Source of the DNA: Candidatus Nomurabacteria bacterium
Lineage (GTDB): Bacteria > Patescibacteriota > Minisyncoccia > Phycocordibacterales > UBA9973
NCBI GenBank assembly: GCA_016199805.1
Contig: JACQGC010000005.1
Coordinates: 6,019-70,018, forward strand
DNA: 64,000 bases
Reading direction: 5' to 3'
Positions 1 to 59,833 of the stretch are shown piece by piece (positions within the stretch are counted from its first letter, which is position 1; each line of letters opens with the position of its first letter). Both the position numbers and the translations under genes were made by a program. The notes beneath the pieces were generated by a model. That model had not been told where the DNA came from. It was given only the letters and a program-made list of their open reading frames with translations, and made no database searches.

Positions 1-27
1 TCGGTTCGAATCCGAGAGGTGGCTCCA
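1..27 (+). tRNA. Partial tRNA, 3' end only. It shows a T-arm (GGTTCGAATCC), an acceptor 3' strand and an encoded CCA ending at 27. The 5' part lies outside the window.
   Basis: TCGGTTCGAATCCGAG matches a canonical T-stem/loop. It is followed by a 7-nt acceptor strand, a discriminator and CCA at 25-27. Confidence 0.5.
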
Positions 28-35
28 GAATTTAA

Positions 36-1754
36 TTAGTTGGAAATATCCTCCACTTTTTTTTCTACCACATCTTTTGCATCTTCAAGTTCTTCTTCAA
101 ATTCTTCCAGAAAAATAACTTCTTCGGAGGTAAGTTTTCTGGTAATTTGAGCTGTTTTTAACCGCGCGACGTGGGAGCTTATATCTTTTCGCAAAAGATC
201 AAAAGATTTATCGATCAAATGCTCTGTCTCTTTCGTTTTATCACGGAGACGGCGGATTAATCTTGAAAATTTATACCACGTAAAGATTCCCACGCCGATA
301 ACACCTCCGATGACCAATAGTATTAAAATGACTCCAGAAAAATAGTCCATAATAAAAGCAGCAACATCGGCTAGGAATTTTGATTTAACCACGATGGTCA
401 ATGGGTTTGTTTCTTTGCTTTTAGCTCCCCGCCCGTCAGTGACTTGAGCGGTAAAATTATATGCTCCCGGAGCAAACCTTTTTGTCACAATAATACTAAA
501 ATCTCCCAGAGAATTGGAGCGCGAAGATTCTTGGTGAATAATTTTTTTGTCTTGATAAAAGAAAACTTCTAGGTCTGAATCTGGATAGGTTGTCCCGCGA
601 ATTTTTACAATATCGTCAAAATTAATTTCTTCGGGGTAAGATGTTATTACAGGCACATCAATGGCTTCTATTGTAAAATCAGACGAGGCGGTGGTAGTGT
701 TGCCGACACGGTCAAATGCTGTCACCGTGACTACGTGCGACCCTGGGTTTTGTGGAGGCAGAGGATATGGGTTTGACAGAGCAATTGGTGCAGTCCGTTC
801 TGGTCCACCATCTCCTATTTTTACTTCGTAGTGACTTATACCCGACAAAGTATCCGTAGTGTCAAACAAAATTACCGGTTGCGGTTCAAGGCTATTTTTC
901 CCGTGAGGAAATGTGACAGAAAACGCTTTTGGAGGCGTCGTATCAATATTTACACGATAACGCGCAATTGCTCCCCAGCCGGAAGCGGTGTGTATCTGCA
1001 GACTAAAATAAGAAACACCATCGGCGACTTTATTAAATTTTTTATTGGAAATTGCCGGCATGCTGATGATAGCAGGTTTACTTGCCGGATTTTTACTGAT
1101 TCCCGTACGTATTTCGATAGATCCTTTCGGTAAAATCCAGAAAAATTCCGGATTATTATTCGCATACCACATTGATTGGTCTGAATGAGTCAGAGAGGTT
1201 ACAACAGGAGCATTCTTTTCTGAAGCTCCCAGAGTAGTATCTTTTTGTTCATTTAACGTAGAAGAATTTGAGGTTTGATTGCCAACATTAACAACGGCAA
1301 TTCCGAGATTGTTTAAAATATTCGTTCCGGTTCCATCATTTGCCAAAACCGATCCGGAAGAGAAACTCAAATTGGCCTGACCTATATTTTTTGTTTTGAA
1401 AGTTATGGAAAGAACCTTACCTTGCGCTCCGCTAAACCCTGGATTTAACACTATCCCTTCAAAGTTCACGGTTCCAAGACTGTTTGAAAAAGAAGGTTCT
1501 TCGGCCCAAAGAGATAAAACTGAACCTGTTTTTGAAATGGAAATTACCTGAAGCTTATCCCACGGGAAAGAAATAACACCTGAAACTGCATTCATGGATT
1601 GATCAGAACTCCCTACATATATATTTACAGAAAAAGTACTGCCGATAGCATAAGAATCTAATACCGGAGAAAAAGAAAGAGTCGCTGCCTTTGCAGAAAA
1701 AGGAATAAATGCCAAAAATAAAAAGAACAGAATTATTTTATATATTTTAGCCAT
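36..1754 (-). CDS. Secreted, membrane-anchored surface protein with an N-terminal cohesin-like domain. It has a C-terminal TM helix and a charged cytoplasmic tail.
   Basis: The N-terminal signal peptide is MAKIYKIILFFLFLAFIPFSAKA. A beta-rich segment (LSFSPVLDSYAIGSTFSVNIYVGSSDQSMNAVSGVISF...KLQVISISK) matches the cohesin pattern. A hydrophobic helix near the C-terminus is followed by an RR/K/E-rich tail. Confidence 0.55.
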   Translation of the reverse strand: MAKIYKIILFFLFLAFIPFSAKAATLSFSPVLDSYAIGSTFSVNIYVGSSDQSMNAVSGVISFPWDKLQVISISKTGSVLSLWAEEPSFSNSLGTVNFEGIVLNPGFSGAQGKVLSITFKTKNIGQANLSFSSGSVLANDGTGTNILNNLGIAVVNVGNQTSNSSTLNEQKDTTLGASEKNAPVVTSLTHSDQSMWYANNNPEFFWILPKGSIEIRTGISKNPASKPAIISMPAISNKKFNKVADGVSYFSLQIHTASGWGAIARYRVNIDTTPPKAFSVTFPHGKNSLEPQPVILFDTTDTLSGISHYEVKIGDGGPERTAPIALSNPYPLPPQNPGSHVVTVTAFDRVGNTTTASSDFTIEAIDVPVITSYPEEINFDDIVKIRGTTYPDSDLEVFFYQDKKIIHQESSRSNSLGDFSIIVTKRFAPGAYNFTAQVTDGRGAKSKETNPLTIVVKSKFLADVAAFIMDYFSGVILILLVIGGVIGVGIFTWYKFSRLIRRLRDKTKETEHLIDKSFDLLRKDISSHVARLKTAQITRKLTSEEVIFLEEFEEELEDAKDVVEKKVEDISN

Positions 1755-2608
1755 ATTTTTTTTATAAAAAGAATAAATATTATTACAGTAAGTATTATAG
1801 CAAAGATTACATAATTTTGATACAGAGTTTGCTTGTTTTGAGGTTCTAGGGTTTCAACTTTTTCGTTCCCGTTTTTGTCGACGGCTTTCACATAAATCTT
1901 TTGACTTAAGCTTTGATTCCGAAGTAAATACGGGCTTTTTGCCTCAACAAAAAATCCAAACCGCCCTTCCCTTACTTTGTAATAATTTACACCCGAAGAT
2001 TTGTCTTGGGTGGAAAAAACAAGAAAATATTTTCCGTTAAAAATTCCAGGGTCACTTGTGATTATCGGTGTAAAATCCTCCGGCATTTCTGTGTCCGGAA
2101 AAATAAACTTTGGCTTAAAACCATCGAGAGTGCCTTTGGAGGAAACAACAATCGGCAAAGATTCATTTTTGATTGGTGTACTGGTGCCCATGCCGTCACT
2201 TAAAAGAGATTGAAGGTCCGTCCCATAAATTATGCCGTTCCCTTCTCCCGTAGCTCTTAAAACGATTGAAAATAGAGCATTACGGGCTCCAGAAAATCCT
2301 CCAGGTGTAATACCTGCAAACCTTATAACGCCAGGTTTTGAGATATCTGGCTTTTCAAGCCAAAAATTTACAACAGAATTCCCGTCTCTTACTTCTTTTA
2401 TATCCACCAAGTCAATCGGAAAATTAATACTGCCTTCTATTGCGTTTATGGATTGCCCTTGTGTATCTACCTGCATAGAAATAATGAATTCTTCTCCCAA
2501 GGTAAACTGATTTCCTTTTGAGTCAAAAGATATTTCTGAAGCATAACTAGCAACAGGAATACACAACAGAATTACAGAGAGAATAAGTGTTTTTAAAAAA
2601 ATATTCAT
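1733..2608 (-). CDS. Second cohesin-like secreted protein with a C-terminal TM anchor. It is a paralogue of the upstream gene.
   Basis: It has a signal peptide. The motif ISFDSKGNQFTLGEEFIISMQVDTQGQSINAIEGSINFP...DIKEVRDGNSV parallels the cohesin-like block of the 36..1754 protein. A C-terminal hydrophobic helix is present. Confidence 0.55.
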   Translation of the reverse strand: MNIFLKTLILSVILLCIPVASYASEISFDSKGNQFTLGEEFIISMQVDTQGQSINAIEGSINFPIDLVDIKEVRDGNSVVNFWLEKPDISKPGVIRFAGITPGGFSGARNALFSIVLRATGEGNGIIYGTDLQSLLSDGMGTSTPIKNESLPIVVSSKGTLDGFKPKFIFPDTEMPEDFTPIITSDPGIFNGKYFLVFSTQDKSSGVNYYKVREGRFGFFVEAKSPYLLRNQSLSQKIYVKAVDKNGNEKVETLEPQNKQTLYQNYVIFAIILTVIIFILFIKKIWLKYIK

Positions 2609-2612
2609 TAAA

Positions 2613-3659
2613 TTATCCGGTCCAATTAAATGCCATAATGCTAAAATCTACCAAATCAACCTTTCCATCCCCGTTGATATCGGCCGACTTAGGTGGATTC
2701 GGACGTTTATACCAATATGCGGTAATAGAAAAATCAACCAAGTTAACTTTGTTGTCATTATTTATATCCGCTTTTGATACTACCTTTTCTGTTAATTCTT
2801 TAATAACGTTCTTTGCACCAACTGTAAAGCCAACCACCTTACCAAAAGAACTGATGTCTCCGCCCAGGGCGGCTTTTGATTTTGCACTATGCTGTCCCAT
2901 TTCAAGTTGAGAAGTGTCAAAATTAATTAAATATGTTCCGTTTGCATCGGTTGTTTTTTTTACAAAAAGTTCATTCTCGGAGTTTATGCTCACAGTAACT
3001 TCCGAAGAAGGAGTGCTTTGTCCAAAAATAGCAAGATTATCTCCTTGTTTTACTTCACTTTTATCAGTGGTAATGGTTGGTGCAATAAAAATCCCGCCCA
3101 CTTTTGTGGTTACACCCTCAGTAACACTCAAAGGAAAAGTAAGGAAGGAAGACCGAATACCTTTACTGTCTTCGGAATAGACGCTAAAAATATAACTTCC
3201 GCTGGAAAGGCCGGAAATCGTAACTTGAAAATTGGCATCTGTATCGGCGACCGTCATCGCCACGACTTGCGCATCTTTTAATAGAGTCACAGTACTTTTA
3301 GGATACGCCCTTCCCGTGAACACGACATTTGTATTTGGAATTGAAGATGGAGCATTATTGTTACCTCCGCCACCACCCCCTCCGCCGCCATTATTGATGA
3401 CAGGCGGAAAAATATTACAAATAGATGTGTTGAAAGTGCAAATAGAGGTACAAGAAAGCGACCCGCTTGCAAACCCACGAGAGAGACAAGAAGAACCCCC
3501 TAAGTTTATCCCGTCGCATTGTTCCCCTGCGTCAATAACATTATTGCCGCACCCTGGAACATTAGCTGTCACGGTGATAGTAAGAGCCGAAACCTTCGTT
3601 ATTTCCTTAAGAAAGAAAACGCTAAACGCAATTATAATAATTAAAATTATTGATCTCAT
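2613..3659 (-). CDS. Secreted dockerin-containing protein with a Cys-rich module, a poly-Gly linker and a C-terminal double dockerin repeat.
   Basis: It has a signal peptide. A Cys-rich segment reads CGNNVIDAGEQCDG...SC...C. A G9 run is present. The C-terminus carries two F-hand repeats, DINNDNKVNLVDFSITAYWY and DINGDGKVDLVDFSIMAFNW, which is a canonical dockerin. Confidence 0.65.
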   Translation of the reverse strand: MRSIILIIIIAFSVFFLKEITKVSALTITVTANVPGCGNNVIDAGEQCDGINLGGSSCLSRGFASGSLSCTSICTFNTSICNIFPPVINNGGGGGGGGGNNNAPSSIPNTNVVFTGRAYPKSTVTLLKDAQVVAMTVADTDANFQVTISGLSSGSYIFSVYSEDSKGIRSSFLTFPLSVTEGVTTKVGGIFIAPTITTDKSEVKQGDNLAIFGQSTPSSEVTVSINSENELFVKKTTDANGTYLINFDTSQLEMGQHSAKSKAALGGDISSFGKVVGFTVGAKNVIKELTEKVVSKADINNDNKVNLVDFSITAYWYKRPNPPKSADINGDGKVDLVDFSIMAFNWTG

Positions 3660-3665
3660 TCATTT

Positions 3666-4652
3666 TCATTGATGTTTTTTTGTTGCACTAGATACTATAA
3701 ATTTATTATATCGCTTTACAGACATAAAGATAAGTAACAAGGCAACAACAATCAGAATCAGGAGTTGCCATGGAATAATAAAAAAATTATAACTTGCGCT
3801 CCCTGTTTGATTTGTATTTCCCCATGTCAAATTAAGAACAGCGGTATACCAACCGAAACGAAAATTTTGCAATTGCTTCCAAGCTATTGTGAAAAATCCC
3901 GCAGTATCTTCTCCGTTTTGTGGAATTAATGACTCTCCCCAAATGACATCAAATTTCCTTATGCTATTTGGCAAGACGCTTCCCTCTTTTTTGTTTGCCG
4001 AAATTTTATCGGCGGTGAGTCTGATCATATTTTTGAAACTGATTTCACCCAAGGGAACAATACGGTCTCCGCCTGTATTGTTTAGGCGGTAAAAAAACGA
4101 AACAGGCAAACTGCTAAAAAATCTCTGTCCTCCATTGGTCATAAATTCATTCAATCCTCCCCCTTCTTTTATATCACCATTCACCCGAAGTAATACCAGA
4201 GCTCCGATTCTACCCCCGATTGATACTTCCCCGCCACTTTGTGTGTTTACAGGAGTAGTGCCAAAAAATATCGCGGCAAAATATCCTCCCGGTTCGGTAT
4301 TTTTTGGTATGGTAATAGAATATGGTATCAATTTATTTTCCCCTTTGCCAATCTGAACACTGGAAATAGATTTTATCCAAGTAGCCAAACCGTCTTTGGC
4401 ACCGACGAAATATGGCGCGCCGGAATCCCCCCTAGGTTCAAAATTTTCAAAAGAAGTAAAAAAGGTTTTATTGGAAGATTCCTCGTTGATGATTTCTATT
4501 TCCCCGGATAAGGTTTGCCCCGGGTCACCACTTAATTCTATTCTCGCCGGGGCTATGGTCAAAGCTCGCGCGTAATTTGAAACACCAAATAAAACAATCA
4601 GCACAGGAATAAAAAACAAAAGTGGATATTTTAATTTTATTTGTTTCTTCAT
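3666..4652 (-). CDS. Hypothetical secreted protein with an N-terminal signal/TM and a C-terminal TM helix.
   Basis: It is a long ORF with coherent coding statistics. It shows hydrophobic N- and C-terminal segments only. Confidence 0.5.
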   Translation of the reverse strand: MKKQIKLKYPLLFFIPVLIVLFGVSNYARALTIAPARIELSGDPGQTLSGEIEIINEESSNKTFFTSFENFEPRGDSGAPYFVGAKDGLATWIKSISSVQIGKGENKLIPYSITIPKNTEPGGYFAAIFFGTTPVNTQSGGEVSIGGRIGALVLLRVNGDIKEGGGLNEFMTNGGQRFFSSLPVSFFYRLNNTGGDRIVPLGEISFKNMIRLTADKISANKKEGSVLPNSIRKFDVIWGESLIPQNGEDTAGFFTIAWKQLQNFRFGWYTAVLNLTWGNTNQTGSASYNFFIIPWQLLILIVVALLLIFMSVKRYNKFIVSSATKKHQ

Positions 4653-4657
4653 ACTTA

Positions 4658-5689
4658 TTAGAAGTTTGCGACAGCAGTATAATTAAGCGCTGTGGCATAA
4701 GATCCGGCTTTTGTTAAAGCAGCCACACTTCCGAGATAGTGAGCAGAATAGGTAGTCGTAGCAGAAGGTGCAGAAGCTGAAGCAATCTGATTTGGAGAAC
4801 CGGCAACAAAAGCAAAACCACTGGCTGAGTATGGAGCGCTAACTGTCGCCGTACCACCTGCCGCATCATATCTGACACCAAATTGTTCTGTGCCTGTGGC
4901 GTAAGCAGTATTTGTAGCTCCGATAGCAGCTATTGTATTCGCACCATCCGTCAAAGTACTTCCATTCAATAAAAGAGTATAACCGCTGGTAGCATTTGTA
5001 CCGACTGCCAAAGTATGCGCCACCGTATCAGACCCGGAACCAAGTGTGTCTGATGTTGCGTATCTGGCAACCGTCGGAGAAAGCGAACCAAAGCCGATAC
5101 TGTTACCTGAAATACTGAAAGTGATGGATTGATCCACCGTCGCGCTAACTGCTACTTGGTCGTTGGACAGGATAGTGACAGATGTACTACCTGTGTCTCC
5201 AAAAGTGCCGGCAATGTTAATTGCGTATAAAGCAGGCGAAGCCGGGTTAATCATATTGGCAGAGGTAAGAGTAAGAATTACTTTGTTTCCCGCAACAATC
5301 AAACCTGTACCGCTCGATGGTGCAGTAAGAGTGAGAACTTGCGCTGCCACCGCTGCGCCCCAAGTGTTTGCTGCGTTTGTAGCGGCAATCGTAGCCGTAC
5401 TTTCTGTACCCAAAGTAGCACCGAATGTCATAAATATCGTTGAAAATGTCTTTCCTGTAAGGTTAAAACCAGCCGGAAAAGTTACGGTGATGGTATTACC
5501 AAAAGCAGTACCTGTGGGAGTGGTAAATTTTATAATGTGACTTGCGGCCGTACTAATTTTCAACGAAGACATTGTGTCCGACTTACTGGTAAGCGAGGCG
5601 GCATTAGCAACACGTGCTCCGCTGAATGAAACAACAACCAAGGCAATCATTAAAACGAGGCTCGCAATTCTTTTTACAAATAATTTCAT
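4658..5689 (-). CDS. Secreted Ala/Thr/Ser-rich beta-repeat protein, paralogue A. Its C-terminus ends with YTAVANF.
   Basis: The signal peptide is MKLFVKRIASLVLMIALVVVSFSGARVANA. The start was moved to the internal Met at 5689. The protein is homologous to the 5830..6861 protein, sharing an ISFSIS..GFG block and a YTA.ANF C-terminus. Confidence 0.55.
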   Translation of the reverse strand: MKLFVKRIASLVLMIALVVVSFSGARVANAASLTSKSDTMSSLKISTAASHIIKFTTPTGTAFGNTITVTFPAGFNLTGKTFSTIFMTFGATLGTESTATIAATNAANTWGAAVAAQVLTLTAPSSGTGLIVAGNKVILTLTSANMINPASPALYAINIAGTFGDTGSTSVTILSNDQVAVSATVDQSITFSISGNSIGFGSLSPTVARYATSDTLGSGSDTVAHTLAVGTNATSGYTLLLNGSTLTDGANTIAAIGATNTAYATGTEQFGVRYDAAGGTATVSAPYSASGFAFVAGSPNQIASASAPSATTTYSAHYLGSVAALTKAGSYATALNYTAVANF

Positions 5690-5745
5690 ATTATTTTCAC
5701 AAGTTATTAATAATAAACTAAGTTCATACAAAACGATATACCTAT

Positions 5746-5775
5746 ATTATACACGACTATTCTAAAATATCGTAA
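5746..5775 (-). promoter_or_regulatory. Candidate sigma70-type promoter (TTACGA-N18-TATAAT) for the 4658..5689 gene.
   Basis: On the minus strand, TATAAT sits at 5746-5751 and TTACGA at 5770-5775. They are 18 nt apart and about 55 nt upstream of the start codon. Confidence 0.3.
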
Positions 5776-5829
5776 TTTCCCGGGCACAACTGTGGATAAC
5801 TGTTTTTCATAAATATTTAATATTTCCAA

Positions 5830-6861
5830 CTAAAAATTAGCGGTAGCGGTATAGGTAATCACTCCTCCATAATTGCCGGCCGAAGTCATCGCGGCTATGT
5901 TTGCAAGATAATAAGCGTTGATGGTTTCAAGAGGTGTGGGATTGCTCTTGGTCACGATAAGCTGATTGGAACCAGTGGTGAATTTCCAATTTCTATTTGC
6001 GGGAACTACGTTATGGTCATAAGAGCTTGTAATGGTGGCACCGTTGTCGGCAGAAAAAGCCAGAGCAAATTGTTTAGTACTTGGTAATCCGTCCGGGTCA
6101 TTTGTAATAGTCGCTTCGGTAAGAACTTCTGGCCCCGCAAAAGCGGTACCATTGTATGAGATAGAATAGCCTGATGTTGCATTAGTAGAAACTTGTAAGC
6201 TGTTTCCACTCGCATCTGTGCTACTACCCGAAGTATCATTGGTTGCAAAACGGGCCCCCGATGGAGTGACGACACCAAAGCCGACAGTATTAGTGGAAAT
6301 GGAAAAAGAAATGACTTGAGGTATGGTAACCGTTTGTTCACTTGAAAGGGTAAGTAAATTGCTGTTATTATCCAATGTTCCAACTACAAAAAAATAATCT
6401 CCGGCACTCAAATTTGTATAAGTATAATTTAAACTAAGGCCAACCGGAGTATAAGCATAAGGACCACCTGAAACCGTAGCGATGCCAACCTTATAACTGG
6501 CTACATTGTAGCCGAGGCCCGCTGTCGTCGGCGTCCAAGTTAAATCTACATTGGAACCATTCAATATAGCCGAGAGTGTCCCCTTTGTAACATATGGATA
6601 ATACAAAAGACCGGACCGCTCTATAAAACTGGTCGAGGATGACTGTCCTGCGCCAAACAGATTTTCACTTGAATACAATTTGAAACTGCCGGAACTTTCA
6701 TATCCACCACCACCACTTACCACCGGATCCCTGATGATAAAACTGGGACTGGTCAAATCAGAAGCATGAATAAAATACATCGGCAAAAGAACACCCAGGG
6801 TTATAGAAAATATTATTTTTAATTTTTTATTTTTTATTTGCGGCATTGTATTTTTATTCAA
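5830..6861 (-). CDS. Secreted beta-repeat protein, paralogue B. Its C-terminus ends with YTATANF.
   Basis: It has a signal/TM segment. It is homologous to the 4658..5689 product throughout the C-terminal 200 aa. Confidence 0.55.
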   Translation of the reverse strand: MNKNTMPQIKNKKLKIIFSITLGVLLPMYFIHASDLTSPSFIIRDPVVSGGGGYESSGSFKLYSSENLFGAGQSSSTSFIERSGLLYYPYVTKGTLSAILNGSNVDLTWTPTTAGLGYNVASYKVGIATVSGGPYAYTPVGLSLNYTYTNLSAGDYFFVVGTLDNNSNLLTLSSEQTVTIPQVISFSISTNTVGFGVVTPSGARFATNDTSGSSTDASGNSLQVSTNATSGYSISYNGTAFAGPEVLTEATITNDPDGLPSTKQFALAFSADNGATITSSYDHNVVPANRNWKFTTGSNQLIVTKSNPTPLETINAYYLANIAAMTSAGNYGGVITYTATANF

Positions 6862-7882
6862 TCTTTCGTGAATCTACTTCTGCATAAACCATCTCGGAAA
6901 CATGGGCGATAATTTTTGCAAGCACGTTGAAATCTTGGCCCTTAGTCATCACACATAACAAATAAGGGTTGTTTGGATAATAAATGACTCCACAATCATG
7001 CAGTTCGTTTTCATGTCCCGTGGACTTGCCGTTTGAAACAAAATCCAACTCGCGCTCACCAAACTTGCCGGCCACTTTTATACCCTGCGGAACTCCGGCT
7101 TCCAATCCTTCCTTGAAAGAAGCCCTGCCTAAAAGGGTTAGAATCTTTTCAGAATTTTCTTTGGACAAAAATGAAGCGTTGTAGAGCAAACGAAACAACG
7201 ACGAATAAGATTGAGTAGAGAGGTCCCCTTTTGTTACATCCCCCGGAACAACCAAACCTAAGTCGCGAAAAGTATCAAAAATCAAATCTTCTTTGGGGTT
7301 TATTTTATATAGTTCGTTCACCAAAAGTTCATTAGCTGCATTGTCAGAGTATTCCAAAGTCCTAGCCACCAAATCATCTATAGTGTACGACTGCCCTACT
7401 ACTAGTTTCTTCGCTGGCGCAAAATCTTGGTTGCCAGACGGAATTTCTTGCGAATACAATATCTTACGCTGTAGCAAACTATCGTCTTGGTCAGCTAAAC
7501 GCAGAACCGTCATCACGGTCGGCAATTTAATCAAGCTTGCTGAAATAAAAAGTTTGTTGGAGTTGATTCCAAAAATCGGACCATTCTCCAAATCTCTAAA
7601 ATACACGCTGGCGTCTGATAAATTGCCTTTACTACTCTCCTCGTTTAGATATGTACCGACACTGTTTTGCAGACTTAAATAAGCAACCTTTCTGATGACC
7701 GGTTTATCTTGGCAAGCCAGGCGAGGGTTAAGATAGTGATAATAATTGCTGTAACAATTGAAATTTTGATTATTAAGATAAAAAGAAATAAAATAACCGA
7801 TGACTAAACCGGTAATTAAAAAAAATGCCATTAGCCTGGAATTAGAAATATTTTTAATTTTATTCAACATTAAATTCTTCAT
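6854..7882 (-). CDS. Membrane-anchored serine hydrolase of the class A beta-lactamase / PBP-like family.
   Basis: It has an N-terminal TM. It carries an SxxK motif (SASLIK), an SDN motif (YSDNAAN) and a K(T/S)G-like motif (AGKFG). Confidence 0.5.
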   Translation of the reverse strand: MKNLMLNKIKNISNSRLMAFFLITGLVIGYFISFYLNNQNFNCYSNYYHYLNPRLACQDKPVIRKVAYLSLQNSVGTYLNEESSKGNLSDASVYFRDLENGPIFGINSNKLFISASLIKLPTVMTVLRLADQDDSLLQRKILYSQEIPSGNQDFAPAKKLVVGQSYTIDDLVARTLEYSDNAANELLVNELYKINPKEDLIFDTFRDLGLVVPGDVTKGDLSTQSYSSLFRLLYNASFLSKENSEKILTLLGRASFKEGLEAGVPQGIKVAGKFGERELDFVSNGKSTGHENELHDCGVIYYPNNPYLLCVMTKGQDFNVLAKIIAHVSEMVYAEVDSRKIE

Positions 7883-7895
7883 ATATTATCTAAAA

Positions 7896-10800
7896 TCAAA
7901 AACTGGGTGTCTCCACGGGAACGCTTGCGGGATTGTCGGCTGGAGCGGTATCGTCTGGAACACTACCAGATACAACATTATCTGGAGTTGGAGTTAACGC
8001 AGGGTCTTGGGTTGGTAGAATGGGTTCTGGGGTTGGAAGTGAAAACGGCACCAAAGATGGGCTGGAAATTTTACTGCTAAAAGTCTTGGCGCTCTTTACC
8101 GCCAAAGCAATCCAGCTGAAACTGATGTTTTGTTTTGCTGTGTCTTTCAAAGTGATAGTAAAACCTTTTTCTGATTTATTAGTTACCAGATACTGCACAT
8201 TGTCTGCAAATAAACTATTTGTCGCTTCAGTTTGAGCATTTTTAATTGACTGAATTAGGGAAGCATCAGTTTCAGTATTTAGATTTTCCAACTGTGGGTC
8301 GGCATCGAGAGTAATAGTCGTGTTCACAATGGGTTGTTCTAAATATTCTTTATCAAAAACTATATCTACGGATTGATCTCCTTTATTTATTTTTGCAAAA
8401 CCGGCCGTATCTGTCGTAAAGTATGGTCTGCCAAAAAATACAGTATCACTCATAAACATCACCGCATCCTTGCCGGAGCTGATAGTATCCACCGTCAAAC
8501 CATTGGCAAATATTTGTGGTGTAATTATTTCCATTGAGGCAGCCACTCGGTCGGTAAAAATCTCGGACAAGTTTTGCATATTGGTTTTTTGATTCCGCAC
8601 CTTAATAAGGAAATCCAAGATTCTGGACTCTACTGTTGCGGGAGTATTGGAAAGAGTTGAAGTCAAACCGTCGGAAACAACCGGAGAAAGAGCCAAGGAA
8701 TCTGTGCTACTTCCATCAGCAGTTGATGGAGACGAAAGCCCATTTTGTGCTGTAGCTGTTACAGCATCCAAATCTTCCTGCATCAACATCTCAATAGATG
8801 CTCCGCTGTAATTTGCCAAATTTACAAACACTACCAATGTTCCGCATTTTGTATTTGGCAATTGACCCAAGCCCATAGATGGACAATCTTCCAATTTATT
8901 TGTGTCCATATTTTCCAGAGCCGTGCCTATTACCCTGCCGGCCTGTGTCGCCCGCATAGCATAACCCGGAATGCTGGAAGAAGTCAGATAATCCCCTGCT
9001 TTTATCGGGCCATTTTCCGTACTGAATCTTACCGGCACACGGCCAACGAGCGCTATCGGCACAGAATCCACAGTCTTTGAACCGGCCACAAAACCTGGAG
9101 CGGTGGAAACGACTCCGACTAAAGTATTTTGATATTGTCCCGTGGAACGCAAGACCCCTTGTGAATTGTTTGGGTCTACCATCACCACTTCTCCTTTGGT
9201 CAGACTTTCGGTTGATGTATAATTTTCCGCCAAATCGGCGCCACCGGAAAAGAATCCACCGTTGGTTGACGACATGATATTTCCGTCGGATGTCACACGC
9301 AAAATACTGAGCCCATTATTTTGTAAATTCATAAGGTCCATCCCATTTGTAATCTGGTACGAATTTACAGTCGGTAAAGATATATTACGATAACTATATG
9401 TTAAACCACTAGAAGAATTATAAACACCATTTAAGTTGAGACCGAATGTAGGAAAATCACGACGGAAATTTATTTCCACTTGAGCCCATTGTTCACCTCC
9501 GGCGTTTCCGATAGACCCTCCAGGTGAGCTTATACTATTCCAAGTAGCCACACCGAGAGCGGTCTGGGTCGCAGCCACTCGCGCTTCCATACGCACAAAC
9601 TGGTCCGGAGTTTGTTGCCAATCAAGTGTAGAATTTGAAGCAAGTGCCGGCACATTCATTTCTTCAGAAAGATATTGTCCATCAGCATACCAACCAGCAT
9701 CGTAAATATTGATAGCCTTGGACCCAGATGATCCTCCGAAAAGAGTAATAAATTTTCCATCTGGCCTTTGAAAAGAAAGGGCACCGTCACCCACGCCACC
9801 ACCGAGATACTGACCAGTGGTTGGGTCTGTCACCGAATCAGCAAAAGTTGTAATAACATTGTCAGCAATAGTTCCAACTAAGAAATATGGAGAGGTGTTA
9901 TTTACTCCACCAGCTATTGTTGTTCTATAAATATTACGTGCTGTTGTTCCGGTAGGACCAATAGTAACAGCAGTAAGACTTTCTTGTCCAAGCGTTGTAA
10001 GAGTACATGACTGTGTAGCAGATGGAGCAGAAAGTGGTGATTCAACACCGCCAATAACGTAAGTATATCTCCAGAAGTGTACACCGGTATTACATAAGTT
10101 AGATCCACCAGAAGCTGGAGCAGAAGAAGTAGGAGCTGGTGGCGCAGTATTAAACATTGTAGGTCCTACAGCCACAGTACCGACAGGAGCACCAACAGCA
10201 GAAGTTGCGCCACCCCAAGGGAAATAAATCTCAGTGAGCACATCATTGTTTAGAGCCAAGTTTCCTCCAACAATTAAAAACGTACCATCAGCTCTCGGAA
10301 TAACATGAGAGCCTCTTCCTAGCATTGCAGGAAAAGTTACACCCGCTGCTTCTGTACCGTTGTAAGGATTGACTATACCTGACAGAGTACCACGAGCATT
10401 TGCTGTAGCTTCTCCTCTTATTATTATCCAATACCCGTCTTGTCTTTGAAATGCGAATCCTCCAGATCCATTAGCTCCGCCAAGAACAGCTCCAAGAAAA
10501 AATGTTTTGGTGTTTGCATTATAAGTCATAGTAGCAGTAGATACAGTTCCAACAGCAGACCCTGCTATAACTTTATACATGTTGTTCATAGAACCCTGAA
10601 GCGGTATAGCAAACCCTCCTAAATTTGTAGCTGCTGTCTGTAAAGGACCCGCTGTCATAGTATTGCGAACTGGATCATAAAGAGATGTAGAAGTAGCGCC
10701 AGCACCAGGTAAAATAGTATAAGTGCCATCAACATTAAGAATCGTAAATGCACCACCAGATGGAGCAGTACCAACTATGGATGGACCGAGAGTAAAACGT

Positions 10801-13800
10801 GAACCAGAGGGGGCATATTGATCATAAATATTTGTCACAGCTGACCCTCCACCAAGCACTACTAAATATTTACCGTTGGGACGTCTAATAGCAAAACCTC
10901 CTGCACCTACTGTAGCAGTAGGCTTATCTCCAGTGGCTGTCTGGTTTATAAATGTTGATGTTGTAGAATCATATAGCTCAGCAGATCCTCCCGCTACTCC
11001 ACCATTTACCACCAAGAATGTTTTATCGTCACGAGCAATAACAAAAGTACCATAACCAGCAAGATTATTTAGAAACTGATGATCATTACCAAATGATCCC
11101 ATATAAAATCCTAAACCTGTGGCACCTCCAACTTGAGTCGTTGGCGTAATACGACCATAAGGAAGTGTGAGTTGATTATTGATTGATTCAACACGAGCAG
11201 ATTCACCGCGAGAAAGCATCGGACCGGAAGGCGTGAGCTGCGCAAATGCCGCACCGAGCGAAACATCCGTCGCTCCGTCAACATAAGAAGTTGTAGAGTT
11301 ATCGTTTAAAGTTGTAACTAAAAATGGAGTATCGGTGACAGCAAGCGCCGCGGCTGTACGATAAATTTTTCTGGCAGTTGTACCGGACGGACCAATTGGA
11401 ATATTTGTCAGAGTAACTTTATCTGTGCCACCAGCGCAAGAGGCAGTAGCACTAGCTCCTAGTTGCGACTCTGCTCCGTTGATAATAAAAGTAACAAACC
11501 AAAAATGGGCTCCAATAGTACAAGTACCTCCGCCCGCTGACTCTGTGGCTGTGGGCGCCACAGGCACTGTCGCCGCTACTGCGGTGTAGCTATCCGGAGT
11601 GCTAAAATCAAATCCTAATTTTTTAAATACGGCAGAATTGTCAATAGAATAATCAAACAAGGTTGGCGTCGTAAAATCATAACGAAGTACTGTCGTATTG
11701 TTCCCCGTCCATGTGCCACGATCATCTGCCAGCTTTTTCGGCATAGCGCGATTGAAGTGTACGGCAACCTTCACGCAATTTGCTCCGGACACAGCACGAA
11801 TATTATCTCCAGGGTTTTGAATTTCTTGCCACGAAGCGGCGGCGAGGGGTCCCGAACAACCGGAAGAATTCACGGCAGTTTTTACAAAAAATTGCATAGC
11901 TTTAAATGCGGTATTGGTGACTCCATTTCTGGCCGCCGCATACACAGCTTCCAGCTGAGCCGTCCAACGCAAAGTAGAACCAGTGCTAATATATGAATTT
12001 GAAATATCTTCCGACGTATACCAAGTCGTAGCCGGAGTGATAGAATATGTGGCACCAAGTGATGCATCAACTGTTGCATCGGAACAAGATGTCGTGGTGT
12101 TATCAGCAATACTACAAGAACCTGAACTTATTAATTTTGGCAATCCTGTATCCCCTGCTGTTGTGCGATAAATCTTGCGCGCTGTTGTAGCCGTACCACC
12201 TGGGCCAATTGGAATACCGGAGAGTGCTACCGTTCCGTTAGCTGCCGTACATGCGACGATGTTTGATTTCTGGCTCAATTCGGATTCCACTCCATTTGTT
12301 ACAAATGTCGTGTAATAAGAATGCAGTCCAGCATCACAGCCCGCACCAGATGAAGGAGTACCAGCAACCGGTGCCACAGGAAATGGATCATACATAGGCA
12401 TATTTGTACTGAAATTATTTGTGGCTTGGCTCGCATTACCGGTGATAATCTGCCATGTTCCATCTGTGCGCATTATTGAATGAGCACCAGCACCAATCGT
12501 AGACGGAGCAGTGCCACCAGTGGAAGTATAGGTCGCAAATGAGTCCGTGTCTTGACTATAAATCCACGCATTGGCCGTAGCCCCTCCACCTAAAATTAAA
12601 AACTTTCCATTTTGAAGCGGGATAGCGTGAGCCCCATCTCCCAAGGCAACCGTCGGGCCGTTGTTGGGACGGCAAGTCATAGTATTGGCTGACGGATCAT
12701 AAACAGCCGAAGAATTTATTCTTGAAAGAATGACATATTTACCATCTTGACGTTTAAGAGCCACCGAACCAAGACTATTTATTCCGCAAGTATTTGTAGC
12801 TTGGTTTCCATCAAGACTTGGCCCAGCGGAAGTAAATGCTCCTATTGTGGCATTTCCTGAATATGGATTATAAATATTTGTATTTGAAGTAGAACCTCCA
12901 TTTACTATGAGCGCACGTCCATCGGGCATGGGAAGTACGAGTGCTCCTGCTGCCCAAACACCTGCCGAAGCAGGTGGACCAAGTCCAAAAGTATTTGCCA
13001 CAGGATCAAATATTTGTGTGGTACCTACAGAAGTAGATGCGCCAATAGTCACGAGATATTTCCCATCTGGACGTTTATATGCTACAGTACCCGCCCCAGT
13101 GATGGCAATAGTCGTTCCAGGCCCAAGAGAACTTGGAACAGTACCCATCGTATCAATGTTAGTTGTAGTAGTTGTTGCACCAGTAGCTGTTCCACAGATA
13201 AGAGTATATTTACCGTCTGGTCTTGGAAGAGCTATTGATCCTACACCAACACCAGCAGTAGTTGCAGTATTACAAATAATTGATTGTGATGCAGTCATTG
13301 CACCTGTAACCGAATCATAAAGAGTGGTTGATGTCGCCCCTCCACCATGTACTATCAAGTATCTACCATTCGGACGCGTAAGAGCCAAGGCACCTGCACC
13401 CACGGCGACTGATGTCGTGGGTTGAGATGATGTCGTTATCGTACCCGTACCAGAGTTTGCCGGAATACCATCCGCCAGCTGTAAGCGTCCGCCAGTATTT
13501 AAAAGATTTGAACCTATTGTTCCCAAAGAAAAATCCGTAGCAGCAGTACGAACGATAGAAGAATCCGAACCATTGACGGTAAGTCCCCCATTTGAACCAA
13601 CGGTGAATCTGTCGGTACCGTTTTGATTTATATCAATAGCGTTGCCGGTGCCGGTGCTGTTGATGGACAGCCCAGCTCCGGTGCCAGCATTGGAGATAGT
13701 CAGTGCGTCAACAGCCCCGGCAGAAAGTTGGTCAACCTTCAGTGCATAGTTGGCAGTGGTTCCACCCGATACCGGATTTTGAAAAATCACCGAACCATCG

Positions 13801-14687
13801 GTGGAGCTTAAGGCAATCGTCACATTACCCCCATCAGTATCATTGTTGTAAGTTGTTTGTAAATCCGAACTGCCGCCGCCTGCCCCGCAACCGGCATCAG
13901 TCGTATTACATAAAACTTTTGTCGTACCGTTTTCATTCACTTTGTATTTATTGGCGCTGGAATCATACCAGATATCTCCAGCCGCTGCGCCGGAGGTGCC
14001 CGCCACGCCAGTCTTTAAGAAATCTCCGGTAGCAATTGTGGTTCTTCCAGAAGCGGAATCTAAGGTCAAACCACCAACGCCACCAGAAGAAACAGTCACT
14101 GCGCCGACTCCAGTGTAGGACAAAGCCGAAAGAAGTCCTGGAATAGTCAAAGCTCCTGAACTAAGAACTGGAATTTGATTACCGGTAGCGGATTGAGATG
14201 GAGTAAACCCCCCCACGGTGCCGGAATTGATAGAATACCCTGAAGAAACCACTTGTGGACGCGGAGTGAGAGATTCAAATGTAACACCGACGCAAGAACT
14301 GGCCACTTGAGCTGCCACTTGCACATCTACATATATAGTATTATTACTTTGAAAATCATAATCAAGCGTGTCTCCCCCGGTTGACACATCCCCAATCCCC
14401 GCGTTAAAAACTCCTTCACGAGTGAGGATGGTCATCGTTGACGGAGCACCCGTGGGCCAAACTTTGGACCCTGCCGTTGATGCATCATATAAAGAAAACT
14501 TATAACAATAGTTTGTGCCACTCGTGCCTCCGAGCAAAGCCCCGCTGGAATTTAAAAGTCTGCCTTGAAAACTAATAATTTTGGGTACCCCTGGCGCAGC
14601 ATAGGCAAAATTTATAAAAAAAGATACGACAAAAAAGCACGTTAAAATCCGTAAAATATTTTTATGTTTAGGATTGTTTTTTCCCAT
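7896..14687 (-). CDS. Giant (2263 aa) secreted surface protein. It has many Kelch/beta-propeller-like blades and a domain repeated four times.
   Basis: It has a signal peptide. It has at least 11 blade-like repeats of the form (R/K)PDGKY...GG. An internal roughly 60-aa domain containing TARKIYRT is repeated four times. It is a single uninterrupted 6.8-kb ORF. Confidence 0.7.
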
Positions 14688-14760
14688 TGGACTGCCTCTA
14701 AATTTTACCTTTTTTAGGCAAAAAACAAAAGGGGATAAACATAAATCGACAAGAAACGAG

Positions 14761-15192
14761 TTACTTTTTCTTTTTTATTGAAGTGCTAGGGATTGAAGTC
14801 GGATTTATAGTCTGAGCTGGGGCAATGGTAGTGGCTTTGTCTCCGACATTTAGAGGCGCAACATTTAAAATTTTATTCAGAGAAACACTGTACAAGATAG
14901 CTTTCTTGGCTTGCGCGTATATCAGCACCTTATCTCCTTTCTCGGCTTGCAAAAAAAATGGCTGATCTTTCAATACTTCAGGGTCGGACACAGTGGCGAC
15001 AGTCGGAGTCTCCCCTTGTGGAAGAACGATTATTTTTGAAACTTTCTCCACGAGGCTAGCTGTCTCTTTTTGAGCCACTGCTTGAGGATTTTGTTTTGCG
15101 ACATAAAGCTGATAAGAAAAATATCCGGCGAGAAACAAAGCCACCACTGCCACAGTGGAAATTATGAGAAATACTTTTTGTATTCTTAGCAT
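14761..15192 (-). CDS. Small membrane-anchored hypothetical protein.
   Basis: The ORF has an N-terminal TM helix and a Lys-rich C-terminus. Confidence 0.45.
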
Positions 15193-15255
15193 ATCTAGAT
15201 TATAAAACAGTTATTTTTTTAATGCAATGTGTATAAACAAAACTTAAGGAAAAAC

Positions 15256-15283
15256 TTGACAGAAATATAAAAAGTGTTATACT
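15256..15283 (+). promoter_or_regulatory. Near-consensus sigma70-like promoter motif (TTGACA-N16-TATACT). It points antisense into the 3' end of the reverse transcriptase gene.
   Basis: TTGACA sits at 15256-15261 and TATACT at 15278-15283. No plus-strand gene follows for about 1 kb. Confidence 0.25.
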
Positions 15284-15302
15284 TTAGCTAACCAATTGGC
15301 TT

Positions 15303-16352
15303 TTATTCACTAACCCACAAATAAAAATAATTTTTTATTTTTATAGAAAATTTGTAAGCATCTGTGTGTGAAAGCACTCCTAGGTATGATGCTAAGGTCG
15401 CTTTGATTTTGTCTTTGCCAACTTCCCCTCTTCGGTATGCTTCAATTTTATCTTCAAATTTTCTGATAATCCTCTTTTTCGTTCTTTTACGAATGAGAGT
15501 ATGGGTAGAAAAGATAATATTCCCCAAAAAATCTATGCCCTTGATATAACTTAATATCTCAACTTTTTCCGGATGTAAATGTAAAAATAAAGAATCTCGT
15601 AAAAATATATTTACGGAGTCTAAAATATGGAGTAAATAATCTCTATCTCTTGAAACAATCACAAAATCGTCAGTGTAGCGCGCATAATAACGAACTTTGA
15701 GTTTGTGTTTAATAAATTGGTCAAATTCATTCATATAGATATTCGCAAAAATCTGCGAGGTGAGATTGCCTATAGGCACACCCTTTCTTCCCAATAAATC
15801 TGACGCAGAACTTGTATAACTCTCGATTATGTTTTCCAGAAGCCAAATTATATTCGGATCTTTAATCTTCTTATTTAAGATTGCCAACAAAATATCGTGG
15901 TCAATTGAATCAAAAAACTTACGCACGTCACACTTGAGCACATAGCATGTCTTTGTATTGTTTCTGCTTTCTTTTCGCAACATACCTCGCAAAGTTTCGA
16001 TCCCCTTATGAGTCCCCTTGCCTATTCGGCAAGAAAACGAGTTGGAAATAAATGTTGGTTCAAATATTGGGTTGAGTATATTAAAAATTGCATGGTGGAG
16101 GACTCGGTCTCTGACGGTGGCTTTATGTATATGCCTCAATTTCGGATCTGATATATAAAATCCTTCGTACTCGCCGTGTTTATAGCTTTTGTTTTTTAAA
16201 TCTCGAGATAGTTTGAAAATATTACTCTCAAGCTCACTCTCAAACATCAATACATCTATTTTCGATCCCTTTCCGTGTTTAAATTCTTTCCACGCTAAAA
16301 ACAAAGCCTCGGGTTGAACAATCTTATTAAATAAATCTTTGTGAATAATCAT
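15303..16352 (-). CDS. Reverse transcriptase of the diversity-generating retroelement (DGR) type.
   Basis: RT motifs are present: the LFxxIxxxxAxxAWKEFKHGKGSK N-terminus, the IGNLTSQIFANIYMNEFDQF motif 4 with the DGR-specific SQ, and the YARYTDDFVI YxDD box. It is about 350 aa and has no maturase or endonuclease domain. The start was chosen at the internal Met (16352). Confidence 0.85.
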   Translation of the reverse strand: MIIHKDLFNKIVQPEALFLAWKEFKHGKGSKIDVLMFESELESNIFKLSRDLKNKSYKHGEYEGFYISDPKLRHIHKATVRDRVLHHAIFNILNPIFEPTFISNSFSCRIGKGTHKGIETLRGMLRKESRNNTKTCYVLKCDVRKFFDSIDHDILLAILNKKIKDPNIIWLLENIIESYTSSASDLLGRKGVPIGNLTSQIFANIYMNEFDQFIKHKLKVRYYARYTDDFVIVSRDRDYLLHILDSVNIFLRDSLFLHLHPEKVEILSYIKGIDFLGNIIFSTHTLIRKRTKKRIIRKFEDKIEAYRRGEVGKDKIKATLASYLGVLSHTDAYKFSIKIKNYFYLWVSE

Positions 16353-16706
16353 ATGAATCAAAATGATGTGCCAGTACTTAATAAATCGTATGAATTGTAT
16401 AAGTTGTTTCACGAATATCGCAAGGTTGTTCCAAAGCAAGACAGATTTACCATATATGAACGAAGTGAGCATGTAATGCTGGGGATTATAGAACTTCTGC
16501 TTGAAGCGAGTTACGGCGGCAAAGAAAGAAAGCTAGTCACCCTAGAAAAAGCCAGCGTCAAACTCAATGTGCTCCGATTCCTGATTCGCATAATGAAAGA
16601 AACAAAAACATTTGATATGAAAAAATACATTTCACTGGAACTACTTGTTGATGAAATCGGACGAATGATTGGAGGATGGATACGTTCGCTCAATCTCAAT
16701 AAATAG
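16353..16706 (+). CDS. avd: Avd-like accessory variability determinant, a four-helix-bundle protein of the 23S rRNA IVS protein family.
   Basis: It is about 118 aa. The helical pattern YELYKLFHEY...PKQDRFTIYERSEHVMLGIIE...LEKASVKLNVLRFLIRIMKE...ISLELLVDEIGRMIGGWIRSL is typical of the Avd/IVS family. It is divergent from the RT gene, and the two start codons are back-to-back (CAT|ATG). Confidence 0.7.
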   Translation: MNQNDVPVLNKSYELYKLFHEYRKVVPKQDRFTIYERSEHVMLGIIELLLEASYGGKERKLVTLEKASVKLNVLRFLIRIMKETKTFDMKKYISLELLVDEIGRMIGGWIRSLNLNK

Positions 16707-16710
16707 CTTC

Positions 16711-16750
16711 ACACAAAAGGTATCCAAAAAGGATACCTTTTGTGTTTTAC
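16711..16750 (+). terminator. Strong hairpin (15-bp stem, AAAAA loop) followed by TTTT. It is the likely avd terminator. It also lies in the spacer between TR and RT on the other strand.
   Basis: ACACAAAAGGTATCC-AAAAA-GGATACCTTTTGTGT is followed by TTTAC, directly after the avd stop codon. Confidence 0.55.
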
Positions 16751-16762
16751 AAAAAGAGACTT

Positions 16763-16891
16763 CGGGAGGAAGCCGGACGCCGAGCCAAAGTTGTCGTTGG
16801 CATTGTCGACCGTGTTCGTGTCAAACTTGAGCTTGCCGTCGTTCCAGTTGAGGTACGGAGCGTGATCGAAGCGAACAGAGGAATCCGGATT
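16763..16891 (-). repeat. DGR template repeat (TR).
   Basis: This 129-bp segment is near-identical to 17300..17428. The two differ at 18 positions, and all 18 are adenines in this copy (read on the minus strand). In the target frame this copy contains multiple AAC/AAT codons. Confidence 0.85.
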
Positions 16892-17186
16892 CTGCCTTTA
16901 TCCATCTATGGCACCGGAACTTGAAAGCTTTGCAAAGCAAAATGCAATCTTGCTCCTGAATTTAACTTCACAACACTTATTTTTTAAGTAAGTTTGTGTT
17001 GGGTAAAGACAAGCAGTATCTCTTCATAGTAACGCTCTTTTTGCAACCGTAGTCGCAAAAATTCTGGCTAGTTTCTTTGTGAAAAGAAAGAGTTCGGCGA
17101 TGGCAATCCATAAACTGCCATACATGAGCTTAGACTCAAGGTTAAGTATATTAAAAGTAAATTTAAAAATCAATATGAAATGAAAT

Positions 17187-17225
17187 CAGGGCTACCCACA
17201 TTGTGTTGTGGATAACCCTGATATT
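17187..17225 (-). terminator. Hairpin about 70 nt downstream of the DGR target gene stop. It has T-rich flanks on both sides. It is a candidate terminator or homing-associated structure.
   Basis: CAGGGCTACCCACATTGTGTTGTGGATAACCCTG is an imperfect palindrome. It has a T-run on the plus side and a T-rich tail on the minus side. Confidence 0.35.
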
Positions 17226-17290
17226 TTTTGCCGCGAACTCAAGAATCAAATGAAAGAGTTCAAAAAATTCAAGTATTCGAAGCGATAGAA

Positions 17291-58552: not shown

Positions 58553-58590
58553 CTCTTTATGACTTTATAAACTTTCTACTTTATAACTAA
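58553..58590 (-). promoter_or_regulatory. Intergenic AAAGTTATAAAGT-motif copy upstream of a pseudopilin gene.
   Basis: On the minus strand it reads AGTTATAAAGTAGAAAGTTTATAAAGTCATAAAG, about 5 nt before the ATG. Confidence 0.35.
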
Positions 58591-59817: not shown

Positions 59818-59833
59818 TTTTTTTGAAATTTAT

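Follow-up and report, generated by a model that had tools for sequence, protein, structure and literature searches.

A putative non-cellulosomal cohesin–dockerin docking module encoded at the end of a pilus-like operon in Patescibacteria

Docking of dockerins onto cohesins is known chiefly from cellulosomes and a few toxin complexes. Here, we analysed three adjacent genes of a Candidatus Nomurabacteria bacterium (assembly GCA_016199805.1, contig JACQGC010000005.1, positions 6,019 to 70,018; this stretch of 64,000 nucleotides (nt) is referred to as the window), which very probably encode a dockerin protein (DocP) and two membrane-anchored cohesin proteins, a small one (CohS) and a large one (CohL). 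The genes in front of them resemble those of two further described systems, Pam filaments and the WxL clusters of Firmicutes. The Pam filaments of Ca. Mycosynbacter amalyticus were studied by electron cryo-microscopy: the pilins join by donor-strand exchange, the PapD/FimC-like chaperones PamC and PamD are membrane-anchored, the RbmA-like terminator PamR is held by a transmembrane (TM) anchor, and there is no usher (Troman et al., bioRxiv 10.64898/2026.03.03.709456). WxLIP of the WxL clusters (DUF916, DUF3324 and a TM segment) is a TM-anchored protein with two immunoglobulin (Ig)-like domains, for which insertion of a strand into partner proteins has been proposed (Hassan et al. 2023, PMC10599100).

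We read the three genes as a non-cellulosomal cohesin–dockerin docking-and-display module of the Patescibacteria cell envelope, and assign this model as a whole, which is drawn from sequence, a probability of about 0.65; the identities of the dockerin and cohesin domains are considered very probable. The best structural matches to CohS are found among non-cellulosomal cohesins, namely those of Clostridium perfringens GH84/GH33 (2w1n, 2jh2, 2vo8 and 2ozn) and of Archaeoglobus fulgidus (2xdh). With such pairs the unit has in common a single cohesin per protein, an apparent use outside cellulose degradation and a Ca-binding two-repeat dockerin. On the other hand, its cohesins are anchored by TM helices, its dockerin carrier is a small, non-enzymatic protein instead of a glycoside hydrolase or toxin, and its genes, which often overlap, stand as a fixed set of three inside a Patescibacteria operon of pilus type. 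Anchoring scaffoldins, such as OlpA/OlpC of Clostridium thermocellum with type I cohesins (3ul4, 4dh2) and ScaB/ScaE of Ruminococcus flavefaciens (5aoz, 2zf9), likewise present a single surface-anchored cohesin of matching fold, which in their case captures a partner with a dockerin, whereas here the anchor is a TM helix and not a surface-layer homology (SLH) domain or a sortase-dependent one, neither a multi-cohesin scaffoldin nor dockerin-bearing enzymes are found nearby, and the organism is not known as cellulolytic. The domains are of kinds already known, and some orthologues are so labelled by NCBI; what appears to be undescribed is the arrangement of the unit in a fibre operon of the candidate phyla radiation (CPR). 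CohS and DocP correspond exactly to the database entries HY311_01495 and HY311_01500, respectively, and these two as well as a third protein compared, HY311_01505, are annotated there as 'hypothetical protein'.

DocP is, by its predicted features, an exported non-enzymatic protein with a canonical two-repeat Ca-binding dockerin. An N-terminal hydrophobic segment resembling a signal peptide is followed by a head with six cysteines (residues 37–81; Cys at 37, 48, 58, 70, 74 and 81), a poly-Gly linker (residues 91–99), two Ig-like domains of the Big_6 type (Pfam, 2.2e-10) and the C-terminal dockerin; the protein has no C-terminal TM segment, and the Pfam scan found no enzyme or catalytic domain in it. 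The dockerin matched Pfam Dockerin_1 (PF00404) with 31.9 bits at a gathering cut-off of 22.9 (E = 1.6e-7), and the match covers residues 297–342 on profile positions 2–52 of 57, i.e. both repeats. The first-pass annotation, made from the sequence without database searches, had described a Cys-rich protein ending in a double dockerin repeat, which this result bears out. The protein ends with repeats beginning DINNDNKVNLVD and DINGDGKVDLVD; as 22-residue units they read DINNDNKVNLVDFSITAYWYKR and DINGDGKVDLVDFSIMAFNWTG, with starts 29 residues apart at the extreme C-terminus. The pattern of Ca-binding residues expected in that annotation is present in both, since Asp or Asn occupies loop positions 1, 3, 5, 9 and 12 (D-N-D-N-D in repeat 1, D-N-D-D-D in repeat 2), and it is kept in an alignment of 40 relatives: D298, N300, N306, D309, N329, D331 and D338 are invariant, D302 and D327 are conserved to at least 90%, and position 9 of repeat 2 is D or N in all. 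In the same 40 relatives, DFS follows each Ca loop, WTG always stands at the C-terminal end, and the six head cysteines and the poly-Gly linker are conserved. The residues behind the loops read DFSIxAYWY and DFSIMAFxW, and we infer that the spacing of their hydrophobics is helix-like, as in the F-hands of dockerins. The two repeats are nearly symmetric, with 13 of 22 positions identical and the same L-V at loop positions 10–11. Solved dockerins were among the PDB sequence matches of the DocP tail (5nrm_B, 5.5e-4; 2y3n_B, 5.8e-4; also 4fl4 and CelS).

Regarding the cohesins, CohS consists of a signal peptide, the cohesin (residues 24–156), a fibronectin type III (FnIII)/Ig-like domain (182–254) and a TM helix (266–290) within a C-terminal hydrophobic stretch of about residues 261–290. 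Its AlphaFold2 model (mean predicted local distance difference test score (pLDDT) 92) shows the same parts, a signal helix, a beta-sandwich at 24–156, a second beta domain at 182–254 and a TM helix at 266–290. When the model was compared with the PDB by Foldseek, cohesins stood almost exclusively at the top, about 30 cohesin chains having a probability of 1.00. The best match was the cohesin+FnIII construct 2w1n (E = 2e-11), with the two-domain layout in common; 2jh2 and 2vo8 gave a template modelling score of 0.77–0.80 (normalised to target), and the other matches included cellulosomal cohesins of all three types (I, II and III) as well as the one from A. fulgidus. The structure comparison called for in the first-pass annotation thus speaks for its cohesin assignment. 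In addition, orthologues matched PF00963, the Pfam Cohesin family: 8 of 55 for CohS, the best at 1e-7, and 24 of 48 for CohL, the best at 4.1e-8. Several orthologues carry the NCBI name 'cohesin domain-containing protein', and a PDB search with the profile of the CohS family found the R. flavefaciens ScaB cohesin 5aoz (E = 0.005). Single-sequence PDB searches with CohS and CohL gave nothing meaningful, and an NCBIfam scan of the two gave no cohesin match. The assignment holds because of the PF00963 matches of the orthologues, the profile match to ScaB, the CohS model and its Foldseek cohesins.

Superposition on solved cohesins was done for CohS, and CohL is assigned by homology to it. The two are clearly paralogues, as judged from their alignments: by BLASTP they are 30% identical over the first 145 residues (E = 7e-18) and have a second domain in common, and by hhalign they match with a probability of 100% (E = 1.8e-41) over the cohesin and the second domain, the cohesins aligning column for column. 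The paralogy of the two adjacent genes had already been proposed, along with the signal-like N-termini and C-terminal hydrophobic helices, which are seen in both the 291- and the 572-residue product. N55, A56, G59, W83 and P87, together with others, are near-invariant in both paralogues and lie on predicted strands three, five and six of the CohS model; the sheet by which cohesins bind dockerins is made of strands 8-3-6-5. CohL is laid out as a signal peptide, the cohesin (about residues 25–160), an inserted domain (about 185–270), an Ig-like domain (271–360) that CohS also has, Big_13 (about 365–455), a TM helix within the hydrophobic stretch of about 460–496 and a charged cytoplasmic tail. 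Compared to CohS, it is thus longer by some 100 inserted residues, a domain of the Big_13/Bap-like kind and the tail, and the cohesin is followed by three spacer domains in CohL and one Ig-like domain in CohS. Big_13 was matched by all 48 CohL orthologues, and the CohL profile found the Bap-like Ig domains of 7dm0 in the PDB (1.5e-6). The tail, rightly called highly charged before, spans residues 501–572 (window positions 39–254, minus strand), where 34 of 72 residues are charged (15 K/R and 19 D/E), and L541 and E545 in it are conserved to at least 90% across 48 orthologues. Weak PDB matches of this tail to ATP synthase subunit b (E = 0.3) were judged to be compositional, reflecting a TM helix followed by a charged helix, and were discarded.

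The coordinates given for the three open reading frames (ORFs) in the first-pass annotation were correct (Table 1). The gene order was not: that annotation placed the dockerin gene after the cohesin genes, whereas all genes in the first 15 kb of the window lie on the minus strand, so transcription reaches the dockerin gene first, then CohS and CohL. The order of transcription in this region is the 2263-residue protein, the beta-lactamase-fold protein, the two pilin-like proteins, the 328-residue protein, DocP, CohS and CohL. The spacing is tight, with 6 nt between the 328-residue gene and DocP, 4 nt between DocP and CohS, and an overlap of 22 nt between CohS and CohL; the beta-lactamase-fold gene overlaps the adjoining pilin-like gene, that of the 343-residue protein, by 8 nt. 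A scan of positions 1–15400 for promoters and terminators gave counts equal to shuffled expectation.

Table 1. Positions of the dockerin and cohesin genes, their domains and the neighbouring genes in the window
Feature	Position	Strand	Basis
DocP, dockerin protein, 348 residues	2613..3659	minus	ORF; Pfam matches
Dockerin module of DocP, residues 296–348	2616..2774	minus	Pfam Dockerin_1
CohS, small cohesin protein, 291 residues	1733..2608	minus	AlphaFold2 model, Foldseek, orthologue Pfam matches
CohS cohesin domain, residues 24–156	2141..2539	minus	Modelled beta-sandwich superposing on solved cohesins
CohL, large cohesin protein, 572 residues	36..1754	minus	Paralogy to CohS, orthologue Pfam matches
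CohL cohesin domain, about residues 25–160	1275..1682	minus	hhalign to CohS; family-derived cohesin profile
PapD-like protein, 328 residues: signal peptide, two PapD-like beta-sandwich domains, C-terminal TM helix	3666..4652	minus	
Pam-type pilin-like protein, 357 residues	4658..5731	minus	NCBIfam NF058581 CPR_Pam_pilin_C
Second pilin-like protein, 343 residues: N-terminal head and Pam-pilin C domain	5830..6861	minus	NF058581 below cut-off
Class A beta-lactamase-fold (penicillin-binding-like) protein	6854..7882	minus	Pfam Beta-lactamase2, 2.4e-32
Surface protein, 2263 residues	7896..14687	minus	ORF

The conservation of the unit was evaluated by a scan of one genome per GTDB species, in which 80 loci were fetched and 3 came from contig look-ups (83 loci in total). 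A DocP relative is encoded in 541 GTDB species representatives, whose titles name Nomura-, Kaiser-, Taylor-, Wolfe-, Campbell-, Azam-, Jorgensen-, Portnoy-, Falkow-, Magasanik-, Veblen- and Torokbacteria; Ca. Microsyncoccus archaeolyticus, with the unit in locus L080, is also among the carriers, as is the complete genome OY970181.1 with locus L078, and the titles 'Saccharibacteria' and 'Gammaproteobacteria' are suspected to be generic or mis-binned labels. More than 2744 homologues of DocP were found, with identities of 55–85% among the 120 matches listed. Such conservation of DocP and of the adjacent PapD-like protein (55–85% identity between named lineages) is unusual among CPR surface proteins and speaks for a core function in the envelope. 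The order DocP, CohS, CohL on one strand is essentially invariant in about 80 Patescibacteria loci. By strict criteria, CohS directly follows DocP in 63 of the 74 loci with enough sequence and CohL is the second gene after DocP in 58 of 63, with a median gap of 1 nt between DocP and CohS and an overlap of CohS and CohL in 52 of 58 loci. Hidden Markov models (HMMs) derived from the families detected exactly one dockerin ORF (DocP) and two cohesin ORFs (CohS and CohL) in the window, a single dockerin ORF in 83 of 83 loci and exactly two cohesin ORFs in 66 of 80. Both the constant 1:2 ratio and the gene overlap would be expected of partners dedicated to binding each other, which is an indirect argument for docking. 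The unit, putatively one plug and two TM-anchored sockets, is a fixed set of three genes, and the Patescibacteria genomes that carry it represent at least 541 species, among them a methanogen-parasitising lineage.

These counts also bear on the idea of a cellulosome-like enzyme scaffold, in which the anchored cohesins would recruit dockerin-bearing hydrolases encoded elsewhere for digestion of the host envelope or polysaccharide. In its favour, cellulosomes are where both domain families were chiefly described, and the inspection covered 64 kb of a contig of 118.8 kb, so that further dockerins might be encoded in the rest of the contig or genome. However, each protein has a single cohesin and no multi-cohesin scaffoldin was found, a second dockerin was seen neither in the window nor in the about 80 loci of about 20 kb each, and DocP, whose gene is fixed beside those of the cohesins as their partner, lacks a catalytic domain. 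We regard an enzyme scaffold as very improbable, in agreement with the earlier statement that the locus is not a classical cellulosome.

The carrier of the dockerin was found to vary in its N-terminal part. In a few variants of DocP the Cys-rich head is swapped, while everything from the poly-Gly linker through both Ig domains to the dockerin is retained. The variant of locus L071 is 1473 residues long with five CarboxypepD_reg domains, SdrD_B and fn3, those of L055, L060, L061 and L074 are about 480 residues long with an extra beta domain, and in locus L077 the dockerin protein has 439 residues (positions 1546–2865 of the locus). The Dockerin_1 threshold was also passed by the variants of L077, L071, L061 and L055. 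Over its first 165 residues, the L077 variant shares 42% identity (E = 6e-30) with the head of the 343-residue pilin-like protein of the window, which takes up the 160 residues of its N-terminal half. A pilin C domain and a dockerin stalk could therefore carry one and the same head, tying the two halves of the operon functionally. This head swap is a single case on a contig of 2.9 kb and is to be read with caution; a beta-lactamase-like gene stands directly upstream of the dockerin gene there, and the arrangement may be a deletion or fusion.

As judged from gene order and family matches, the three genes close an operon at its 3' end; the genes before them encode two pilin-like proteins of the Pam type and a PapD/WxLIP-like protein anchored in the membrane. 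The 357-residue pilin-like protein matched NF058581 (CPR_Pam_pilin_C) with 63.8 bits (1.8e-17) at a cut-off of 55, and the 343-residue one stayed below it with 43.6 bits (3.1e-11). The equivalog model for PamT, NF058579, was not matched, its best score being a weak 25.1 bits for the 357-residue protein at a cut-off of 240. For the 328-residue protein, no Pfam or NCBIfam family and, by family profile search, no PDB entry was matched; in its model (pLDDT 85.7), a pair of beta-sandwich domains precedes a C-terminal TM helix. Structurally it comes closest to Enterococcus faecium WxLIP (5e-12, 12.0) and RbmA (2.6e-11, 10.6), and the chaperones CfaA, EcpB, SafB, FimC, CsuC and PapD of chaperone–usher systems follow (about 1e-7 for CsuC, CfaA and Caf1M; 9.1–11.4). 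It is a candidate membrane-anchored chaperone or tether, similar to PamC, PamD or PamR and to WxLIP.

Compared with the Pam system, the neighbours bearing the Pam pilin C domain, the two-domain PapD/RbmA-like protein with its C-terminal TM helix, which resembles PamC, PamD and PamR, and the signal peptides on all components are alike. Unlike here, the described pam operon comes from Saccharimonadia and Microgenomatia and has no cohesin or dockerin; the present operon belongs to Nomurabacteria (Paceibacteria-type) and gave no match at the level of PamT. Regarding the WxL clusters, WxLIP (9i1y, 9i25) is the best structural match of the 328-residue protein, with two Ig-like domains and a TM helix, and a small and a large surface protein with a common C-terminal domain likewise occur with a membrane-anchored partner. 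On the other hand, there are no WxL domains and no sequence similarity here, and WxL clusters contain neither cohesin nor dockerin. The unit is joined to an operon for a fibre type first described in 2026.

What is placed in front of the unit varies among loci. Pam-type pilins are replaced in L001, L017, L024, L080 and L082 by an alternative front half, in which a protein of 490–940 residues and mostly one of about 175 residues are encoded upstream of the dockerin gene. Both end in a common C-terminal motif, '...FRLTxPSxSTDYxQKSITITVQAVAP', and are followed by a protein of about 200–260 residues with a C-terminal TM segment and a conserved N-terminal '(I)GVGVGxGK' motif, a shorter version of the TM-anchored protein. 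This layout resembles that of the small and large WxL proteins with WxLIP. The alternative upstream genes in loci without Pam-type pilins received no Pfam or NCBIfam assignment. The invariant core is therefore made up of the TM-anchored PapD-like protein, DocP, CohS and CohL, whereas the genes of fibre type that precede this core differ between loci.

In the proposed model, CohS and CohL, once exported through Sec, would be tail-anchored in the cytoplasmic membrane with their cohesins distal on the outer face at two heights. DocP, itself unanchored, would stay at the surface because its dockerin binds one or both cohesins in a Ca-dependent manner, and the near-symmetric repeats would be compatible with a dual binding mode in either orientation. 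Docked DocP would show its small, swappable, disulfide-rich head beside a Pam-type fibre. Because it is co-encoded with the PapD/WxLIP-like protein and, in this genome, with the two pilin-like proteins, docked DocP would most likely work with the fibre in surface architecture or host attachment. If docking is true, it offers an easily testable protein–protein interaction in organisms that can hardly be grown, a handle by which the attachment apparatus could be labelled or pulled down, and possibly an answer to how surface structures of CPR cells are anchored in the absence of ushers and sortases.

Several observations weigh against such a module. What argues for docking is domain identity together with synteny, so the interpretation as a docking system, already put forward in the first-pass annotation, is supported, and the cohesin–dockerin binding itself is what we infer from it. 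CohS and CohL themselves fall below the Pfam Cohesin thresholds and gave no PF00963 match at E<0.1 in the Pfam scan; the check by this family, suggested at the outset, turned out positive for the orthologues counted above and negative for the window proteins. In the PDB search with the 59-residue tail of DocP, the top sequence matches were FG-GAP-like propeller lectins (4tqj, 1.1e-7) with EF-hand proteins also present, and a plain sequence search rates the Ca loops of the fungal FG-GAP-like lectins as high as or higher than solved dockerins. As for the fibre, the link to a pilus is one of gene neighbourhood, Pam-type pilins are detectable upstream in 29 of 62 loci while the others have a different unannotated protein pair of about 700–940 and about 175 residues, and the words 'cohesin' and 'dockerin' occur nowhere in the paper on the Pam system (bioRxiv 10.64898/2026.03.03.709456). 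Since that paper has neither, the three genes are regarded as an addition to the described Pam system and not as a part of it.

Because FG-GAP-like lectins rank first in the tail search, we retain an explanation without docking, in which the repeats would be generic Ca loops (FG-GAP/VCBS or EF-hand-like) that stabilise DocP, and the sandwiches would be Ig-like or carbohydrate-binding-module-like stalk or carbohydrate-binding domains of two unrelated surface proteins. A precomputed match to PF13517 on one DocP homologue and the Pfam result for the window cohesins fit with it as well. On the other hand, there are just two repeats, they stand at the extreme C-terminus, and their near-full match to Dockerin_1 exceeds the threshold both in the window and in the variants, whereas FG-GAP was not matched by DocP at E<0.1 in the Pfam scan. 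The hydrophobic spacing behind each loop, if helix-like, also speaks for a dockerin, and the strict 1:2 co-occurrence with overlapping genes is hard to explain without a partnership. Generic Ca loops and unrelated sandwiches are accordingly judged improbable.

The pair might also act on the fibre itself as an anchor or assembly platform, i.e. the cohesin–dockerin pair would fix a donor-strand-exchange fibre to the cytoplasmic membrane, with DocP as basal or adaptor subunit, or with the cohesin proteins organising the PapD-like chaperone and the pilins, in place of an usher, sortase or PamR-type anchor. The position at the 3' end of the operon agrees with this, as do the TM-anchored PapD/WxLIP-like protein, whose relative precedes DocP in 63 of 72 loci, and the fibre-type proteins with a common C-terminal domain. 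In addition, the heads of pilin and DocP appear interchangeable in L077, Pfam and NCBIfam scans found no usher or sortase gene in the cluster at 36–7882, and DocP (59%) and the PapD-like protein (55%) are the most conserved members by mean column identity, compared with 37% for the cohesin proteins. However, DocP lacks the C domain of the Pam pilins, the Big_6 matches of its Ig domains are complete, the described Pam system is anchored by PamR without cohesin or dockerin, and the head swap is the one case described above. We therefore consider an anchor or platform doubtful. It would amount to a hybrid of cellulosome-type docking and chaperone–usher-type assembly in many Patescibacteria, an unlikely but not negligible arrangement, and in it the heads would sit either on a pilin C domain in the fibre or on an Ig-Ig-dockerin stalk plugged into one of the two membrane-anchored cohesins of differing height, which we suggest only tentatively. 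If true, it would explain how wall-poor cells lacking ushers and sortases fix and organise their host-attachment apparatus.

Returning to the docking-and-display module, no paper in the searchable literature ties cohesin or dockerin to this operon or to Patescibacteria, save a passing note on an unrelated Southlakia protein. The essential 'dockerin' protein SEML1_0315 of Southlakia (Wang et al. 2023) was considered as an orthologue of DocP and rejected: it has about 927 residues and is flanked by a hydrolase and a tRNA gene, and 'cohesin' is absent from the tables of that paper. The metatranscriptome paper of Kuroda et al. (2024) contains nothing specific on the operon.

On the 5' side of the cluster, membership of the beta-lactamase-fold protein in the system is uncertain. 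A relative of it was found in 11 of 83 loci, mostly upstream of the pilin genes on the same strand, and the protein scores far below all NCBIfam beta-lactamase cut-offs; as a partner of the fibre it may remodel the wall or act like a transpeptidase. The secreted 2263-residue protein (7896–14687, minus strand), encoded directly upstream of the cluster, has no Pfam match. Its gene contains six copies of a 41-nt unit (61–71% identity) and a 90-nt pair, encoding '...RPDGKYL...' motifs, and the product may be the 'tail fibre-like protein' reported near pam operons. The ATP synthase neighbourhood also reported for pam operons was not seen among the scanned ORFs, which covered part of the window; candidate ORFs at 53–61 kb include DNA ligase, type IV pilus genes and others. 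The type IV pilus gene set (58007–61225, minus strand) comprises a prepilin peptidase (A24_N_bact, 4.4e-32) and two N_methyl prepilin-like proteins, and the genome therefore encodes a second, unrelated filament system.

Beyond the surface protein lies a diversity-generating retroelement (15303–18184). Its reverse transcriptase gene (15303–16472, minus strand; RVT_1, 1.6e-26) adjoins a pair of 132-nt repeats, an intergenic template repeat (TR, 16760–16891) and a variable repeat (VR, 17297–17428), between which every mismatch falls on an adenine of the TR. The VR lies at the 3' end of a 297-residue ORF (17291–18184) without a family match, and a 143-residue ORF (14761–15192) may encode an accessory protein of the retroelement.

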